A stretch of 14,856 bases of DNA, taken from a virus (Duplodnaviria > Heunggongvirae > Uroviricota > Caudoviricetes). A model generated the notes under the pieces. That model had not been told where the DNA came from, ran no database searches, and worked only from the letters and a program-made list of their open reading frames with translations. The stretch lies in IMG/VR virus record IMGVR_UViG_2778261223_000017, one strand, 5' to 3'. Numbering within the stretch: position 1 is the stretch's first letter; each line of letters begins with the position of its first letter. Both the position numbers and the translations under genes were made by a program. Shown in pieces: positions 3,819 through 14,856 of this stretch.

Positions 3819-4799
3819 GTGGCCCAGGAGTTACAACAATATTTTCTACAGTCAGTGCTCATTAACGATAACAAAGTGCCACGAGACTGGATTTTTACCG
3901 CAGTATATGTAGAAAAAACCAGCCTCAAAGCCCCTTTGCTAAAACTGGAAATTCATGACGCTACCGGCACCGTAATTGATGACTGGAAAGCCAAATACGG
4001 TGCATCGCTGGTGGCTGAAATGGGCGATCCAAACGGTAATGCAGGCACTTTTAAAACAGATTTCTTTGTTACGTCTGCAATGCTGGCTGGTGATGTTGTT
4101 ACCGTTATTGCTGTCAGTGAAGACGTGCGCAGGTTTAAGATCCCCTCCCCGCGCACAAATTTACATACCAACAAAACACCAGACGCTATATTCAAGGCAT
4201 ATTCCGGCAAGCTTAAAATTACCAGCAGCGTGCTAAAACGCGCAGTTACATATCATCTGAATGCCGGTGACAAACCGTCAAAAATGCTTTCGGAGATAGC
4301 GCGAGACAAAGGTGCATTATGTTGGGTATGCCGGGGGGAATTTAACTTTTACACCCTGGCTGATCTGATGAAGCAAACGCCATCATTTACCTACGAGGGG
4401 AATAACCCTAAAGCAGAATACACTTTGTCCAAAATGCGCCTACTCCAACAGGAACATGCGACAACAGCAAAGAATCAATATCGTTTTGTTGGGTATTCCA
4501 TGACCGATGGCTACGTCGAATATGGCGATAGCTCACTCCCAGTGCGTTATATATCCGACTCTGATATGGAAACTCTTCGCAATATGCAGCTGTCTCTCGT
4601 CCCCAAAATGGATATAGAAGTCGCAGGCAATCCTGATATAAAACCGGGGATGGTGATAGAGATTATCGTATACCGCTATGACCAGGAAAACCGCATTGAT
4701 GAATCAATGCCCCGTAAGCTGATAGTAAAAAATGTTGCGCACTTTGAAGACCGCGTAGGCTACACAACACGAATGATATTGGGAGTGCCGAACAAATGA
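3819..4799 (+). CDS. Putative phage baseplate hub protein (late control gene D / gp27-like)
   Basis: 326-aa ORF with a GTG start 4 nt after the previous stop. Segments KMLSEIARDKGALCWVCRGEFNF and GNPDIKPGMVIEIIVYRYDQENRIDESMPRKLIVKNVAHFEDRVGYTTRMIL resemble conserved regions of P2 gpD-family hub proteins by recall. Immediately followed by, and coupled to, a spike-like gene. Confidence 0.5.
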   Translation: MAQELQQYFLQSVLINDNKVPRDWIFTAVYVEKTSLKAPLLKLEIHDATGTVIDDWKAKYGASLVAEMGDPNGNAGTFKTDFFVTSAMLAGDVVTVIAVSEDVRRFKIPSPRTNLHTNKTPDAIFKAYSGKLKITSSVLKRAVTYHLNAGDKPSKMLSEIARDKGALCWVCRGEFNFYTLADLMKQTPSFTYEGNNPKAEYTLSKMRLLQQEHATTAKNQYRFVGYSMTDGYVEYGDSSLPVRYISDSDMETLRNMQLSLVPKMDIEVAGNPDIKPGMVIEIIVYRYDQENRIDESMPRKLIVKNVAHFEDRVGYTTRMILGVPNK

Positions 4800-5457: not shown

Positions 5458-5502
5458 CCCATTTGTGTTAGATAATTAATATGTATTTTCTAACACAAAT
5501 GG
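5458..5502. repeat. Perfect 14-bp inverted repeat (ccatttgtgttaga ... tctaacacaaatgg) with 17-bp AT-rich spacer
   Basis: Seen directly between the spike gene stop (5449) and the rdgC-like start (5509). Candidate operator or terminator-like hairpin. Confidence 0.5.
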
Positions 5503-8024: not shown

Positions 8025-9686
8025 TTAACCTAACTTCGCCCAGGTATCACGCAGCCCAACGGTGCGGTTAAATACCGGTTTTTCCGCCGTAGAATGGCGG
8101 CTGTCGAGGCAGAAATAACCTTCACGCTCAAACTGGAATGCTTTACCCGCTACCGCGTCTTTCAGAGACGGTTCAGCAAAGCCCTGTTTGATCACCAGCG
8201 ATTCCGGGTTAATCACCGACAGGAAATCATCCGCAGCACCTGGGTTCGGCACGCTGAACAGACGGTCATACAAACGGATTTCAACCGGCAGCGCATGTGC
8301 CGCGCTCACCCAGTGAATAACACCTTTGACTTTACGACCATCTGCCGGATCTTTGCTTAAGGTATCGGCGTCATAAGTACAGAAGATGGTGGTGATATTA
8401 CCTTCGGCATCTTTCTCGACGCGTTCTGCCTTAATCACATAAGCATTACGCAGACGCACTTCTTTACCCAGCACCAGACGTTTGTACTGCTTGTTAGCTT
8501 CTTCGCGGAAATCGGCGCGATCAATCCAAATCTCACCGCTAAACGGCACCTGACGGCTCCCCATTTCCGGTTTGTTCGGATGGTTCGGCATGGTGACCAT
8601 TTCGCCTTCGCCCTGATAGTTTTCGATAACCAGTTTCACCGGATCGATAACCGCCATTGCGCGCGGCGCATTTTCGTTGAGATCTTCACGGATGCAGGAT
8701 TCCAGCGACGCCATCTCAATGGTGTTGTCCTGCTTGGTCACGCCGATGCGTTTGCAGAACTCACGAATAGAAGCAGCAGTGTAACCACGACGACGCAGAC
8801 CGGAAATGGTCGGCATACGCGGGTCATCCCAGCCTTCAACGTGCTTGTCGGTCACCAGCAGGTTCAGCTTACGCTTGGACATCACAGTGTATTCCAGATT
8901 CAGGCGCGAGAATTCGTACTGGCGCGGGTGAACAGGAATGGTGATGTTGTCCAGTACCCAGTCATACAGACGACGGTTGTCCTGGAACTCAAGCGTACAC
9001 AGAGAGTGCGTAATACCTTCCAGCGCATCGCTGATGCAGTGGGTGAAGTCGTACATCGGGTAGATGCACCACTTGTTGCCAGTCTGGTGGTGTTCAGCAA
9101 ACTTAATGCGGTACAGCACCGGGTCGCGCATCACGATAAACGGCGAAGCCATATCGATTTTCGCACGCAGGCAGGCTTTACCTTCTTCAAAACCACCGGC
9201 ACGCATTTTTTCGAACAGCGCCAGGTTCTCTTCAACGCTGCGATCGCGGTACGGGCTATTTTTACCCGGCTGCGTCAGGGTGCCGCGGTATTCGCGGATC
9301 TGTTCCGGCGTCAGTTCGTCAACATACGCCAGGCCTTTGTTGATCAGTTCAACAGCATAGGCATGGAGTTTGTCAAAATAATCGGAGGAGTAACGGATGT
9401 TGCCAGACCAGTGAAAACCTAACCATTCAACGTCGTTTTTAATCGACTCGACGTACTCGATATCTTCTTTTACCGGGTTAGTGTCGTCGAAACGCAGGTT
9501 GCACTGGCCTTTATAGTCCTGGGCGATCCCGAAGTTCAGGCAGATAGATTTCGCATGGCCAATATGCAGATAGCCATTCGGCTCCGGCGGGAAACGGGTG
9601 TGTACTGTGGTGTGCTTACCACTGGCCAGATCTTCATCGATGATCTGACGAATAAAGTTAGTCGGGCGGGCTTCTGCCTCACTCAT
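8025..9686 (-). CDS. glnS: Glutaminyl-tRNA synthetase
   Basis: 553-aa ORF. N-terminus [47 protein letters not shown] (class I HIGH motif) and a VMSKR-type KMSKS motif; near-identical to E. coli GlnS as recalled. Confidence 0.97.
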
Positions 9687-9875
9687 TGTGGATTCCTCAA
9701 AGCGTAAACAACGTATAACAGCGTATGATCTTATAAGCCGAATAGGCTGACAACCACTAGTTGATTAGAAATTGCTTTCTATCGTTATTTCAATAATGAG
9801 CTTTTTCATGAAGCCCACTTTTGCGCATAAGTAAATTAATGACAAATGGTACACAATTGGAACCAAAAAGGATGT

Positions 9876-9913
9876 AAAGGTGCACCAAATTAGTGGTGTA
9901 TTGGTGCACCTTT
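9876..9913. promoter_or_regulatory. Perfect 13-bp palindrome arms (aaaggtgcaccaa ... ttggtgcaccttt) with 12-bp spacer in the glnS-upstream / partition-downstream intergenic region
   Basis: Seen directly. Could be an operator, a centromere-like site or a terminator hairpin for the upstream partition operon. Confidence 0.4.
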
Positions 9914-9954
9914 GGTTCAAGACTTTTTAAGTTCTAAAACCAACCTGAAAGACT

Positions 9955-10242
9955 TTATTTTGCTTCCTCAGACTCCGCTAACATGAGGATAGCATGGCGG
10001 ATCATATTCAATTTGCTGCGATTATGCTTTTTACTTAACGCATCAAGTACTTGGTACTCGTATTCATTGAAACCAACACGAATAGATTTAAAATCACGTG
10101 GAGCGTCCTTATCGAGCACTTTGTTGTCTTCTGGTTGCTCACCCGGCACCAAATCAGCCTTACTGGCAAAATCCTCAATTCGGCGTTCAAGATCAGGGTC
10201 TTTTACTTCGGGGGCTTTTACCGATTTACGAGGCTTAATCAC
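9955..10242 (-). CDS. Small partition-operon DNA-binding protein (ParG/ParB-like, probable ribbon-helix-helix)
   Basis: 95-aa basic ORF directly downstream of and overlapping (8 nt) the ParA-like gene. Disordered N-terminus, then C-terminal KSIRVGFNEYEYQVLDALSKKHNRSKLNMIRHAILMLAE consistent with a beta-strand plus helices RHH fold. Confidence 0.55.
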   Translation of the reverse strand: MIKPRKSVKAPEVKDPDLERRIEDFASKADLVPGEQPEDNKVLDKDAPRDFKSIRVGFNEYEYQVLDALSKKHNRSKLNMIRHAILMLAESEEAK

Positions 10243-10876
10243 TTAATAACTCCTTAACCAACATCTGGATTTCACCTTTAGCTTTCCCGTTGTCCATCTC
10301 AACAACGCCCTTCCCTTCAGCCATGCAATCGCGGTAAACCTTACGATCACGAATGATGGTTTTCAGCAACTTCAGTTGCGGATATTCAGCCAGGTACTCT
10401 TTGGCCTCATTGGTTTCATTCACAACCGGATTGGATGGGGCCATTGTTAAGACTGCGAACGCCTTGATGCTAGGATTAGGCATCAGGTCCAAAGCCTCTT
10501 CAAACACTTCAACAAAGTGTGCCAGCGTGTCTAAATCTGGTTGAGATGGTCTGAATGGGACCAACACAATATCTGCAGCGGTTATGCCTGTACGCATCTC
10601 TTTGCTATCGCGCCCGGCTGTATCAACAACTACAAATTCATAACGCTTATCCAGATCGAGAAGTGTTTCTCGAATATTACCAAACTTCTGGACACAATGA
10701 ATTACAGGAGAAACCTCTGCCGTGTTACGGTCAGCTGCCCAGCGGGCAGCTGTTCCTTGCTTGTCTGCATCTAGTAACACTACATCCTTATTTTCGCGGG
10801 CAAGCTCCGCACAGATGTTTACGCTTGTGGTTGATTTTCCACAGCCACCTTTTTGGCTGACTACCAATATAATCAT
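10235..10876 (-). CDS. parA: ParA/ParF-type partition ATPase (deviant Walker A)
   Basis: VVSQKGGCGKSTTSVNICAEL Walker A box and VVVDTAGRD Walker B-like motif. Start chosen at ATG 10876 (GAGGA Shine-Dalgarno 5 nt upstream) rather than the track's TTG at 10906. Confidence 0.85.
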   Translation of the reverse strand: MIILVVSQKGGCGKSTTSVNICAELARENKDVVLLDADKQGTAARWAADRNTAEVSPVIHCVQKFGNIRETLLDLDKRYEFVVVDTAGRDSKEMRTGITAADIVLVPFRPSQPDLDTLAHFVEVFEEALDLMPNPSIKAFAVLTMAPSNPVVNETNEAKEYLAEYPQLKLLKTIIRDRKVYRDCMAEGKGVVEMDNGKAKGEIQMLVKELLSD

Positions 10877-11114
10877 ATCCGTTCCTCGGTGTGATTTTGG
10901 TATCAAAACGGTTCCAGATAAGAGCCTTTTTGATGCGGGACAGGCTCTATAATGGAGTCATGAATGTTTGGCAAAGTATAACATCAATCAGACCAAATAC
11001 ACCTTATATTGCATCCTATTTAACACGAAAGCAGCCCCAAATTGGAACCAGATACAAAATTGCACCATAACAGCACCTAACTGGTGCCAGATTAACACTA
11101 ATTAGACACCATTA

Positions 11115-11146
11115 AGGCATAAAAAAGGCTGCAATTTGCAGCCTTA
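11115..11146 (-). terminator. Rho-independent terminator after parR (aaggctgca-loop-tgcagcctt followed by a U-run on the minus strand)
   Basis: Seen directly. Confidence 0.65.
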
Positions 11147-11163
11147 AACCAGCACATCTTCTG

Positions 11164-11502
11164 TCAATCAGGTAGAGAGTCAGCCAGATTGCGCGCCGAC
11201 GCGCTTTTGGCAACAAATTGCTCCTTCACTGGCTCAATGGAGGCAGGGCGCTCCTCAACCGCAGCTGGTAGTTCCAAGAAGGATGCCAGCATTTTTCGGA
11301 TCAGCTCCGGGTTATTGTCTTCGGTCAGCAGGGAAGCCAGTAATCCTGGAAGCCTGCTATCGACTTCTCCCAGCGCAAGCCCTGCCAACAATGCAGTTCT
11401 TGCCATATCGCTATGTTTTTTTATCTTCTCGCTCGCCGCCTTTTCATTGGCATAAGCCTCTGGGCGAAGATAAATCATCACTTTCTTACGTTCCTGAGAC
11501 AT
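11164..11502 (-). CDS. parR: ParR/StbB-like centromere-binding protein
   Basis: Small ORF immediately downstream of parM. ARTALLAGLALG resembles the R1 ParR motif NRAALTAGLALY by recall. Start at ATG 11502 (ACGAGG 7 nt upstream); 11508 is an alternative. Confidence 0.65.
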   Translation of the reverse strand: MSQERKKVMIYLRPEAYANEKAASEKIKKHSDMARTALLAGLALGEVDSRLPGLLASLLTEDNNPELIRKMLASFLELPAAVEERPASIEPVKEQFVAKSASARNLADSLPD

Positions 11503-11514
11503 GGACATACCTCG

Positions 11515-12471
11515 TTAACCGATTGCTTTCAGGCCATGAACAAGAGCAAGTTGCGGGTCATCCGCCACGAAGAAACGGTCATCACGAATATTAACTTGCT
11601 CGCGAATTGCATCTGCCACCAGCGGTGCGCCACCACCGATCACCATGACATGCGTATATCCTTTAAAGTCGCCAATCACATCAAGAACGCGGGTACGCAG
11701 ACGGTCAATGCTTGCGGCAATGGCCTTTTTCACATCACCAATCGCTAATGGGTCATTGATATTGTCGTTCAGATAATCTTCATCGTGGCGGTTAATAATG
11801 AGCTGATCAACATTGTAATTTGACGTTTCGGTATTGGCCCTTGCAAGTGCTTGCCTTACTTCCCTGGTGACCAGTGATACACCAAGATTCGAATCGCCAA
11901 AAACACGGGAAACTGCCGTCATTTGTCCAGCGACCATTGAAACATCAAGGGTAGTTCCACCCAAATCGACGATAAGAACAGAGTGGGCAGGGTTCAGATT
12001 GTCGCACAGGCTAATTCCCGCCGGGATAGACTCCGGGCGTACCGTAACTTTCTTAATAGTGAATACATTGCCTTTATTCAGCGTGACGGGGCGCATAAGA
12101 CTGGCTTTCTTGCGCTCGATGTTATCGAGATTGTATTGCGCGTCGTCGTCGTAAAACTCTGCCAGAGGCAGCGTGACCACAATTTCTACTTCCTGCGGCT
12201 CAATACCGCTTGTCAGCAGGGCATGGTGAACAGCCAGGACGTTAAGCGGGCTGTATTGCCATTCCACATTATTCGTCGGCAGAACATCTGGCGATATCAA
12301 GTCGTATGAATACTTTTCGTCGTCAATGACATAGTTAAACGGCTTGCCCGCACCAAATGTTGCTGACCATCCGCGCTTAAAGCTGTTAGGGCTGATGTGA
12401 GTGCGAGTTTCCCCGTCGTGCTCCCACAGCATTTTGATATTGGTTGAACCATCATCGATAAAAATGCGCAT
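11515..12471 (-). CDS. parM: ParM/StbA actin-like partition ATPase
   Basis: MRIFIDDGSTNIKM..., HISPNSFKRGW, AVHHALLTSG, NIERKKA, ESIPAG, LIVDLGGTTLD, GDSNLGVSLVT and GYTHVMVIGGGA parallel R1 ParM motif by motif. Start at ATG 12471 (GGAG upstream); the track start 12495 is 8 codons longer. Confidence 0.9.
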   Translation of the reverse strand: MRIFIDDGSTNIKMLWEHDGETRTHISPNSFKRGWSATFGAGKPFNYVIDDEKYSYDLISPDVLPTNNVEWQYSPLNVLAVHHALLTSGIEPQEVEIVVTLPLAEFYDDDAQYNLDNIERKKASLMRPVTLNKGNVFTIKKVTVRPESIPAGISLCDNLNPAHSVLIVDLGGTTLDVSMVAGQMTAVSRVFGDSNLGVSLVTREVRQALARANTETSNYNVDQLIINRHDEDYLNDNINDPLAIGDVKKAIAASIDRLRTRVLDVIGDFKGYTHVMVIGGGAPLVADAIREQVNIRDDRFFVADDPQLALVHGLKAIG

Positions 12472-12495
12472 CTTCTTGCTCCACTTCTGAGACAC

Positions 12496-12660
12496 ATTTG
12501 AGAATCAAAATGTAATTTTAAAAGAGAAGCCCCCAAAAATCCACACCAAACGAGATAAAAAAGGGCGCTTGTTGAGTTTATTTTGAGAATATCTTAATCA
12601 CCCACCGAATGATGGTCTGATAGTGAGATTTATTTGAGAGCGAATTGAGAATACAAAAAT
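12496..12660. repeat. Candidate parC-like centromere: repeated TTGAGA(A/G)-containing elements upstream of parM
   Basis: TTGAGAAT at about 12499 and 12582, TTGAGAG at about 12634, TTGAGAAT at about 12649; two longer related copies gagtttattttgagaat and gagatttatttgagagc. Seen directly; the role is inferred from position upstream of parMR. Confidence 0.4.
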
Positions 12661-13022: not shown

Positions 13023-13828
13023 TGCTTGATTCAATAGGTGAAGTTAAAGCCTTCAAAATTCTGTCAGATGCCGGTATCTCTACACCAGAATCTATAACCA
13101 TAAGCCGAGCAGCTTCTGTAAAAGCCTCATCGCTCGCCAGCGCCATACAGGGAATAGTTCACGCCGATAAAACCTATCCTGATTCTGTTTCGGCCTGGAC
13201 TACTCAATTGCTTGGCTTTTCTGAACAGCTCAATGAGGCCAGCAAAGCGTCTTCATTACTGGCTGATTCTCTTTCCCCATACACCAAGCCATCAGAGCTG
13301 TTACAGATGAAGATTGGCTGGGAATGCTACGCAAAAGGTAACGAGCTGACCCCCATACCTGCTTTCGCCCTTGTTGAGGGAATGGGGAATGTTTCCATTC
13401 CGCAATCTCTAACGGACGCATTGACGGCGCTAAAACTTGATGCTCTGAAAACCGCCATGAACGCCATTAACGCAAAAATTGAAGCTGCCGGAAGTGCTGG
13501 TGGTGGTGATAGCAATGGTGGACAGGGTGGTGCTGGGGGCGCTCAGGCTCCAGTCATTACTCAGGATGAAATTGATGCTTTACGGGAAGCAGTGACAGCC
13601 GCCGAAGCTTTACTCTCCGAAATTAACTCAGCAAGTGAGAGTGTCGTAGCCCTTACAGGTCGCATTAAAACGTCAACCACTCAGGCAACCAAAGGTTTAG
13701 AGAACGCTGTCGCCATCACGTTAACTGGCTCTCTACTGGATGATGCAGTAATGAGTCCGGCAATCAGTTTAATCATGCCACAAGGCGTTATCGATGCGCT
13801 CCAAAAGAACACCAAAAAGGAACCATAG
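13022..13828 (+). CDS. Hypothetical protein coupled to the PAAR gene; Ala/Ser/Thr/Leu-rich with an internal Gly-rich linker
   Basis: Start ATG overlaps the PAAR stop (TAATG at 13020-13024). Predicted helical, no TM segment, linker AGSAGGGDSNGGQGGAGGAQAP. No family recognised. Confidence 0.6.
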   Translation: MLDSIGEVKAFKILSDAGISTPESITISRAASVKASSLASAIQGIVHADKTYPDSVSAWTTQLLGFSEQLNEASKASSLLADSLSPYTKPSELLQMKIGWECYAKGNELTPIPAFALVEGMGNVSIPQSLTDALTALKLDALKTAMNAINAKIEAAGSAGGGDSNGGQGGAGGAQAPVITQDEIDALREAVTAAEALLSEINSASESVVALTGRIKTSTTQATKGLENAVAITLTGSLLDDAVMSPAISLIMPQGVIDALQKNTKKEP

Positions 13829-13883
13829 CAACACCACTTAGGCACACAAAAGGATGTAATTTGGTACATGTTTAACACCGAAA

Positions 13884-14357
13884 ATGAACCTGAAGAGGAT
13901 GGTTTTGAAAAAGATAATTTTGATTGTAATTGCGCTTTTAGCCATTTCTGGAATTTACCGAACAACGACGGCAGTTATCGAACACATCAGGTATGTCCGA
14001 TCGCTTGAAGACTCAAAATCACAACTGGAAAGCACGAACAACACGCTTTCTACCGCATTACAGTTAAGTGAGAACGCTCGCTCAGCCATGCTGACCGAAA
14101 ACGAAAGAATTAAAGCACTGGAAAAGGAGTACCAGCGCAAAACAGCAGAACTGAATGCCAACCTAATCAAACAACGAGAGGAAAGCCAGAATGAAATCAC
14201 TCGCCTTGAAAATGCGTTACGCCGTGCTGGGATTAACGATGTGCGTGTGCCTGATGACGTTATCAGGATGCAGCGGGAACGGGCAAAAGCCATCAACCAG
14301 CGTGCCAGTGAAAATTACCGTAGAAGCCACCAGCAAGCCGCAGGCAAATCTGATTGA
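13884..14357 (+). CDS. Rz-like inner-membrane spanin (i-spanin): N-terminal TM anchor plus periplasmic coiled coil
   Basis: N-terminal hydrophobic segment KKIILIVIALLAISGIY followed by a charged heptad-rich region. NALRRAGINDVRV resembles the Rz C-terminal region of lambda by recall. An overlapping +1-frame lipoprotein gene is embedded at its 3' end. Confidence 0.6.
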   Translation: MNLKRMVLKKIILIVIALLAISGIYRTTTAVIEHIRYVRSLEDSKSQLESTNNTLSTALQLSENARSAMLTENERIKALEKEYQRKTAELNANLIKQREESQNEITRLENALRRAGINDVRVPDDVIRMQRERAKAINQRASENYRRSHQQAAGKSD

Positions 14358-14523: not shown

Positions 14524-14779
14524 AGCCAGATGTCCTGGCTGTCAGCTTCTTCGAAACCGTGACAGACGTTAAAGTCACTCAAACGATACTGACGCTGACG
14601 GCCCCTATTTCGCTCATGCCAATGCATATATCCACCAGCAAATGCCAGCGGACAATCGCTATAGTCTATGTAACCAATACCATTCCCCAAACGTGCTTCG
14701 CGCGCACCAGCTTTCCAGGACAGTAGAAAAGAGTCACGATCCGCCAGCATAACAACAAAATCGTCCGGATCTCCGATAC

Positions 14780-14856
14780 TGAACCGCCCCGGAAATCCTG
14801 GAGACTAAACTCCCTGAGAAAGAGGTAAACAGGATGACTAAAAATACTCGTTTTTC
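14780..14856 (+). mobile_element. Left end of an IS3-family insertion sequence (terminal inverted repeat TGAACCGCCCCGG...) including the start of the transposase orfA
   Basis: Terminal repeat is inverted relative to 41-77. An ATG at 14834 preceded by GAGG opens a frame reading MTKNTRF..., which matches the N-terminus of an IS3-family OrfA as I recall it. Truncated by the window end. Confidence 0.65.
14834..14856 (+). CDS. IS3-family transposase OrfA, N-terminal fragment (partial, runs off window)
   Basis: ATG with Shine-Dalgarno inside the IS left end; only 7 codons visible. Confidence 0.5.

Follow-up and report, generated by a model that had tools for sequence, protein, structure and literature searches.

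The centromere-binding proteins of type Ib partition systems are ribbon-helix-helix (RHH) repressors acting on direct and inverted repeats beside their operon (PMC5016525). In pSM19035, the RHH protein omega recognises arrays of 7-10 short iterons, direct and inverted, which are present in three separate places and serve as operators and centromeres, and in TP228 a small Walker ATPase (ParF) is combined with an RHH protein with a flexible N-terminal tail (ParG) and a site, parH, of direct and inverted short boxes with AT-rich spacers upstream of the operon (PMC5016525). The parC site of plasmid R1 consists of 11-bp repeats in two blocks around the operon promoter, which are bound by the RHH protein ParR (PMC5016525). 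The par2 locus of pB171 encodes a small ParA and a DNA-binding protein of ~90 aa, and its operon is flanked on either side by repeat arrays (PMC4270457).

The stretch of DNA analysed here (the window, 14,856 nt) is the reverse complement of Escherichia phage D6 DNA, with 99.9% identity. D6 is a P1-like plasmid prophage with a genome of 91 kb, and a D6 coordinate equals 69611 minus the window coordinate. The minus strand of the window carries parM/stbA (11515-12471), parR/stbB (11164-11508), orf60 (10235-10876, with its ATG at 10876), which encodes a ParA-like protein of 213 aa, and orf61 (9955-10242), which encodes a predicted centromere-binding protein of 95 aa. The start of orf61 overlaps the end of orf60 by 8 nt. 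A canonical intrinsic terminator on the minus strand (11125-11145, AAGGCTGCAAATTGCAGCCTT followed by TTTTAT) is located directly after parR and divides the transcription unit of parMR from that of parA-orf61. The partition cassette is directly followed by glnS (8025-9686, minus strand), encoding a full-length glutaminyl-tRNA synthetase; its presence on D6-like plasmids has already been noted (PMC6799933). On the plus strand, upfC-like and upfB-like genes run to 13828 and are followed by orf55, starting at 13905, the product of which matches Rz-like spanin families (phrog_214, E 3.9e-15), in agreement with the preliminary description of this DNA. The D6 record and one paper on D6-like plasmids (PMC6799933) give the par genes and no centromere. 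The region discussed below is matched by 138 plasmid records.

When written in an 11-bp register, three regions of the window, designated R1, R2 and R3, appear as arrays of similar units. The unit consensus, from 113 pooled units of seven systems, is AWnnRGYACCA with the core GYACCA, of which ACCA is the most informative part. R1 (9844-9923) is located downstream of orf61, ~90 bp upstream of a candidate glnS promoter, and consists of about 7 units of 11 bp: AAATGGTACAC, AATTGGAACCA, the degenerate AAAAGGATGTA and AAGGTGCACCA, followed by the inverted units TACACCA, AAGGTGCACCA (9902-9912, minus strand) and GTCTTGAACCA (9913-9923, minus strand). Relaxed cores occur 14 times per 100 bp in R1 and 1.4 times per 100 bp in the window. 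R2 (10880-11116) extends beyond what had been seen before: its units are found on both sides of an extended -10 element and continue into the parA leader. The distal part (10996-11116), upstream of the parA promoter, includes ATTTAACACGA, AATTGGAACCA, AAATTGCACCA, TAACAGCACCT, AACTGGTGCCA, GATTAACACTA and ATTAGACACCA, and the proximal part (10880-10940), in the parA 5' leader, reads GCATCAAAAAG GCTCTTATCT GGAACCGTTTT GATACCAAAAT CACACCGAGGA on the minus strand. Homologous 11-bp units are present at the same place in two further loci, L003 and L004. The candidate promoter of parA-orf61 (TGnTATACT, 10975-10983, minus strand) was read from the sequence; it has no good -35 and a consensus promoter scan made no call there. 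It is kept in D6, L003 and L004 despite diverging flanks. R3 (13804-13891) comprises 8 units (AAAGAACACCA, AAAAGGAACCA, TAGCAACACCA, CTTAGGCACAC, AAAAGGATGTA, ATTTGGTACAT, GTTTAACACCG and AAAATGAACCT), shares 25 nt with the 3' end of the upfB-like gene and stops 14 nt short of the spanin start. It is 2.7 kb away from the parA operon, beyond the parMR operon.

The units were initially delimited by eye, and the position matrix derived from them is low in information, so that single-unit calls are unreliable and significance is claimed for arrays only. As an unbiased test of periodicity, lag-11 self-identity was calculated in 88-bp windows over the window and the whole 91-kb D6 genome. R1, R2 and R3 scored 0.51, 0.49 and 0.43, respectively (genome mean 0.252, sd 0.052). 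R1 and R2, which are exactly the two flanks of orf60-orf61, rank first and second in the genome, and R3 ranks seventh. With the position matrix, the best array score (44.5) was that of distal R2. When a matrix trained on R1 and R2 only was run over the rest of the 91-kb genome, R3 came out on top, with a score of 35.5 against 23.2 for the next array (background mean 1.9, sd 2.8). The divergence between units is too great for Tandem Repeats Finder, which found no repeat in R1-R3 at a minimum score of 30.

Ranks three and four in the lag-11 test are taken by other 11-bp families. One of these is located upstream of repA (locus L001, 596-683; D6 45596-45683), where a DnaA-box-like TATCCACAG is followed by 11-bp-phased (A/T)ATCCTTTTT repeats; these repeats, the third highest in periodicity, are presumably part of oriR. 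The other is found directly upstream of parM, where TGAGA copies are present at 12488/12499, 12573/12584 and 12624/12635/12646 (2+2+3). The TGAGA repeats (12488-12650) are probably an unannotated parC centromere/operator of the ParMR system and the sites of ParR. Similar (T/A)GAGA repeats precede parM (4451-4650) in the Enterobacter plasmid L021. We considered R1-R3 as oriR repeats of D6, which was rejected since the oriR repeats have a different unit. In addition, a perfect 14-bp inverted repeat with a 16-bp spacer (CCATTTGTGTTAGA / TCTAACACAAATGG, 5459-5502) is located in the 59-bp gap between a gene 5-like and an hrdC-like gene and may act in termination or regulation. Another inverted repeat, imperfect and ~26 bp long (CTCCAGGAnnnCCGGGGCGGTTCAG), is present at the window ends (55-80 and 14779-14804); both copies lie within coding regions and read LQ(E/D)xRGGS in the sense frame. 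Searching the whole window against Rfam gave 0 matches at the gathering score.

In the preliminary description the three regions had been linked by exact words. The 12-mer AAAAGGATGTAA is found at 9866-9877 and 13848-13859, as claimed, and the 11-mer AATTGGAACCA at 9855-9865 and 11040-11050, with a small offset from the coordinates first given; its second copy is 164 bp upstream of the parA-like ATG. A GGT(G/A)CA element, which was said to follow the 12-mer, is also present (GGTGCA at 9879-9884, GGTACA at 13863-13868), but its offset from the 12-mer is 13 bp in one case and 15 bp in the other, and thus the registers differ. Repetition is frequent in the window, where 23 distinct 12-mers and 92 11-mers occur more than once, and the observed count was reached in 2 of 200 shuffles for the 12-mer and in 18 of 200 for the 11-mer. 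Since repeated words are this common, we reject a significance of the exact words. Furthermore, the 12-mer consists of the degenerate unit AAAAGGATGTA and one base of the next unit, and does not match the core; the identity of AAAAGGATGTA between R1 and R3 is within chance. AGGATG was tried as an element common to the three arrays and discarded, being within chance and not conserved in pLD93-1. Among the elements described initially, the palindrome alone is improbable by itself: a 13-bp perfect inverted repeat is expected 0.005 times per window, and any was seen in only 1 of 200 shuffles. In summary, the exact words are within chance and the 11-bp-phased arrays are clearly non-random; the proposal of a common regulator site is retained as a site of one DNA-binding protein in three regions, but not with the exact 11- and 12-mers as the functional unit.

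Homologues of orf61 beside a small ParA are present on plasmids of Serratia, Aeromonas, Arsenophonus, Spongiibacter, Rahnella, Marinobacter, Hahella, Acinetobacter and others; a first, word-indexed protein search had found close relatives only. The plasmids belong to several gammaproteobacterial orders, have differing replicons and usually show no ParMR. Using the D6-derived matrix, the top arrays were found to flank the cassette in plasmids of Serratia, Aeromonas, Spongiibacter, Marinobacter, Hahella, Rahnella and others. The strongest arrays directly precede parA or follow the small gene; they score 25-48, the background being about 2 ± 3. Among another 27 genome loci of ~5 kb encoding the same type of protein, the best array adjoined the cassette in 21 (binomial 6e-11, the flanking zones making up 19% of the sequence). 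The homologous loci L023, L031, L034 and L045 scored weakly. Candidate RepA iterons, or a replication origin, were rejected as an explanation, as the arrays follow the par cassette across replicon types.

Three relatives of P1 and D6 lacking the cassette served as negative controls. The Enterobacter D6-like plasmid L021, which contains parMR and neither orf60 nor orf61, has no GYACCA array and has kept the TGAGA repeats, and no GYACCA arrays were found in P7 and Cronobacter phage JK004, which are cassette-less as well. In all three the junction between upfB and the spanin gene is compact and R3 is absent. The co-travel of the arrays with parA/orf61 homologues on unrelated plasmids and their absence where the cassette is missing support a common site.

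A third, distal array, 0.8-2.4 kb from the operon, was found in the Serratia locus L005 (4170-4360), the Spongiibacter locus L009 (3340-3395), L019/L035 (~4895) and L032 (~3972); a three-array layout may be typical of this parA/RHH family. In L005 and L009 the third array is located between convergent genes, where a promoter is not expected. With these positions, and with R1 lying downstream of orf61, a shared ancestry of promoters, which had been offered as a second explanation for the recurring elements, is not supported.

Among D6-like plasmids the arrays are fast-evolving, as judged by sequence comparison, with the units being kept. R3 is conserved in L003; in L004 its sequence has diverged and the units can still be recognised. 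In GGnACC the central position varies freely, being A, T or C depending on the plasmid. In the otherwise D6-like L015 (NZ_CP122809), a 55-bp deletion at ~4568 removes exactly five 11-bp units inside R1. It corresponds to window 9847-9901; the similar TGGT(A/G)CAC units on its two sides point to slippage of units or to recombination.

A type Ib ParA is short (about 200-230 aa), with a deviant Walker A motif and without an N-terminal DNA-binding domain. The product of orf60, a Walker-type ParA of 213 aa, fits this description; it starts directly at the P-loop (MIILVVSQKGGCGKST). It matches the Pfam families CbiA/AAA_31/MipZ and scores 162.8 bits with NCBIfam ParA_partition (cut-off 180). It is 43% identical (E 2e-58) to the ParA of the double par locus on pMAR7 (NC_010862), a locus which we take, from its gene order, to be of the pB171 type. 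Other features of type Ib systems are found as well: the small gene is located right downstream of parA in the same operon, and each homologous locus that was inspected shows this pairing; an RHH fold is predicted for the small protein; and direct and inverted repeats are present at the operon and overlap its promoter, R2 surrounding the candidate promoter and R1 following the operon.

From weak sequence matches and a monomer model, orf61 is predicted to be an RHH protein. The widespread family comprises at least 692 sequence clusters, all annotated as hypothetical and none assigned to a Pfam family, and orf61 matches no Pfam and no NCBIfam family. Its profile gave E 0.0013 against CopG when built from 10 sequences and 0.55 when built from 61; the match to an Arc-like PHROG had an E value of 1.8e-4, and RHH_1 matches were obtained for 23 of 61 family members. 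The N-terminus is basic, with invariant K3 and R5, and is followed by a helix (16-29) and a linker. The predicted C-terminal RHH domain (~45 residues) consists of a strand (~52-58) and two helices (60-73 and 77-94). The predicted DNA-reading strand reads K-x-I/L/M-R-V in every GYACCA system. The Acinetobacter clade has K-T-H-T-I instead, and AACTAAT as its flanking 11-bp units. Strand and box sequence thus covary, which amounts to protein/site covariation at the level of sequence.

Compared with ParB of the pB171 type, orf61 gave a BLAST E value of 1.1 and an hhalign probability of 1.6%, with the N-terminal MVK(R/K) motif alone aligning. This motif and a short helix (IEAFA / AEALA) are common to the orf61 family and the unrelated pB171-type ParB; they are located in residues 1-28 of orf61 (window 10159-10242, minus strand) and at 44031-44110 in L012. 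The ParA partners of the two proteins are 43% identical, and this N-terminal peptide may be the part that contacts ParA.

The explanation we prefer is that R1-R3 are the cognate sites of orf61 in an orf60-orf61 type Ib partition cassette of the phage-plasmid D6, with a probability of roughly 0.78. R1-R3 would then most likely be its unannotated centromere/operator arrays. What was observed are the periodic arrays, found exclusively together with the gene pair, and the predicted fold. Binding, repression and partition (stabilisation) activity of orf61 we infer from that co-occurrence, the negative controls and the protein/DNA covariation. The preliminary description had named this small RHH protein as a possible binder, and on sequence grounds it is the best candidate. 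One orf61 dimer is expected to bind each unit through its two-stranded beta-ribbon, and as the units are one helical turn apart, the dimers would align cooperatively on one face of A-tract-phased DNA. Since R2 surrounds the candidate extended -10 promoter and the leader, a coat of orf61 would occlude both and so autoregulate parA-orf61. The coated R2 and R1, at the operon flanks, and R3 would serve as centromeres, at which the basic N-terminal tail of orf61 would stimulate nucleoid-bound ParA-ATP, so that the plasmid prophage is positioned. Type Ib systems are described as working in this manner (PMC5016525).

The palindrome in R1 can be read in a second way. Its arms, AAAGGTGCACCAA (9876-9888) and TTGGTGCACCTTT (9901-9913), are 100% complementary, with 12 nt between them, which agrees with the earlier claim of a perfect 13-bp palindrome. 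They could chiefly form an RNA hairpin terminating parA-orf61 before glnS, the resemblance to the motif being secondary; we regard this as possible but unlikely. The palindrome is located 42 nt past the orf61 stop codon, the minus strand RNA has a predicted fold of -31 kcal/mol (z -3.4), and the scan found no other terminator between orf61 and glnS. It made no call on the minus strand for the palindrome either, however: this is a stable hairpin with a 12-nt loop, a moderately GC-rich stem and the tail UUUACAUCCUUUUU, without a direct U-run. Strict conservation is absent, as pLD93-1 and pTB423 each carry one uncompensated change in the palindrome. Both natural changes would give G.U pairs in the minus strand RNA, in favour of a terminator, but two wobble-compatible changes out of two have a chance probability of 1/4. 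An inverted repeat follows the small gene in several homologous cassettes, and in Serratia it is a canonical terminator. In D6, however, the palindrome is built from a central unit with an inverted GGTGCACC unit on each side, and its arms match the consensus twice and keep the 11-bp register of the adjacent units; a terminator would moreover leave R2 and R3 unexplained. Besides lying in a proposed centromere/operator array, the palindrome may terminate the parA-orf61 operon.

In several members of the family a GGAGCC...GGCTCC inverted repeat is located right after the small gene (L005 3280-3310; L009 2495-2554; L017 2795-2840; L011 2740-2790; L020 2785-2830), often with A/T runs and a GGTAC unit in the middle. 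These repeats are built much like the D6 palindrome, with a different arm sequence.

It is also conceivable, and in our view improbable, that the arrays serve chiefly as operators and that orf61 is a global regulator of the omega kind, controlling parA-orf61 through R2, glnS through R1 and the spanin gene through R3. Plasmid maintenance would thereby be linked to expression of cargo and lysis genes, and the idea overlaps and is compatible with a centromere role. The omega protein of pSM19035 indeed has three iteron arrays at three promoters which are also parS sites (PMC5016525), and every D6 array is located upstream of a co-directional gene (R2 of parA, R1 of glnS, R3 of orf55), with the end of R3 only 14 nt from the spanin start. 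However, a scan found no promoter inside R3, and the sole candidate promoter of glnS (9753-9725) is ~90 bp beyond R1. The downstream array is furthermore present in L003 and L004, from which glnS is missing and in which a terminator follows that array, and the third arrays of the Serratia and Spongiibacter plasmids, between convergent genes, are again in a position without an expected promoter. A small chance is given to a broader proposal, in which orf61 would go beyond the role of a partition adaptor and act through R1 and R3 as an omega-like global regulator or roadblock, or in which the three arrays, bracketing the ParMR and ParA operons, would build a higher-order 'partition island'. If the regulator version were true, the partition state would be tied to expression of the cargo gene glnS and the late lysis (spanin) gene via R1 and R3; if the 'partition island' version were true, two segregation machines would be coupled.

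ParR (StbB) from the neighbouring type II ParMR locus, suggested initially as the alternative binder, is very improbable in that role. The 11-bp period is the same as that of parC of plasmid R1 (PMC5016525) and R2 directly follows parR. A distinct 11-bp family, TGAGA, however, fills the parC position before parM (12488-12650) and persists in the Enterobacter parMR plasmid without GYACCA arrays, and GYACCA arrays with parA/orf61 homologues occur on plasmids showing no nearby ParMR. Classification of R1-R3 as type II parC was rejected, as such arrays do not travel with ParMR and the parC position is taken by the TGAGA repeats. That short words merely recur by chance where intergenic DNA is A-rich, without a shared function, is hardly credible: this is a fair description of the exact 12-mer identity alone, repeated 11- and 12-mers being common in the window and the 11-mer recurring in shuffles. 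For the arrays it is excluded by the first two periodicity ranks, by the detection of R3 in the held-out test, by the arrays recovered on distant plasmids and by the negative controls.

Phage-plasmids of the D6 type are often found in E. coli, Salmonella and Shigella, and stable inheritance sets their persistence. The present work places three candidate centromere/operator arrays on the map and puts a name to their likely binder. R1-R3 are defined DNA targets for work on incompatibility, curing and stability, and the orf61 family would offer a natural specificity switch for RHH recognition (IRV/GYACCA versus HTI/AACTAAT). The system appears to be of an ordinary kind, with an uncharacterised DNA-binding protein, and does not reveal a new principle.

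Of the known systems, par2 of pB171 resembles the D6 cassette in having arrays on both sides of the operon and an adjoining ParMR system. Compared with the pB171-type locus on pMAR7, the D6 proteins are 43% (ParA), 43% (ParM) and 32% (ParR) identical. The small protein of par2, however, is not detectably related to orf61, parC1 and parC2 of pMAR7 contain ATCACA/TTCATA-type boxes instead of GYACCA at 11 bp, the two operons are divergent in pMAR7 but arranged in tandem in D6, which also possesses a third array at a distance of 2.7 kb. Membership of D6 in the par2 family proper was therefore rejected: the ParA proteins are homologous, but ParB homology and the pB171-type 6-bp boxes were not found. 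With delta/omega of pSM19035, also type Ib, D6 shares the three-array layout; omega binds contiguous 7-bp heptads and each of its sites is at a promoter, whereas the D6 units have 11-bp spacing and a different core, and two of the three D6 arrays do not overlap a recognisable promoter. TP228 differs from D6 in box sequence and spacing, and its parH is a single upstream locus. Finally, R2 shares the two-block geometry of parC of plasmid R1, but the partner of the latter is the actin-like ParM of a type II system, whereas the D6 arrays go with a Walker ATPase and the ParMR system of D6 has TGAGA repeats of its own.
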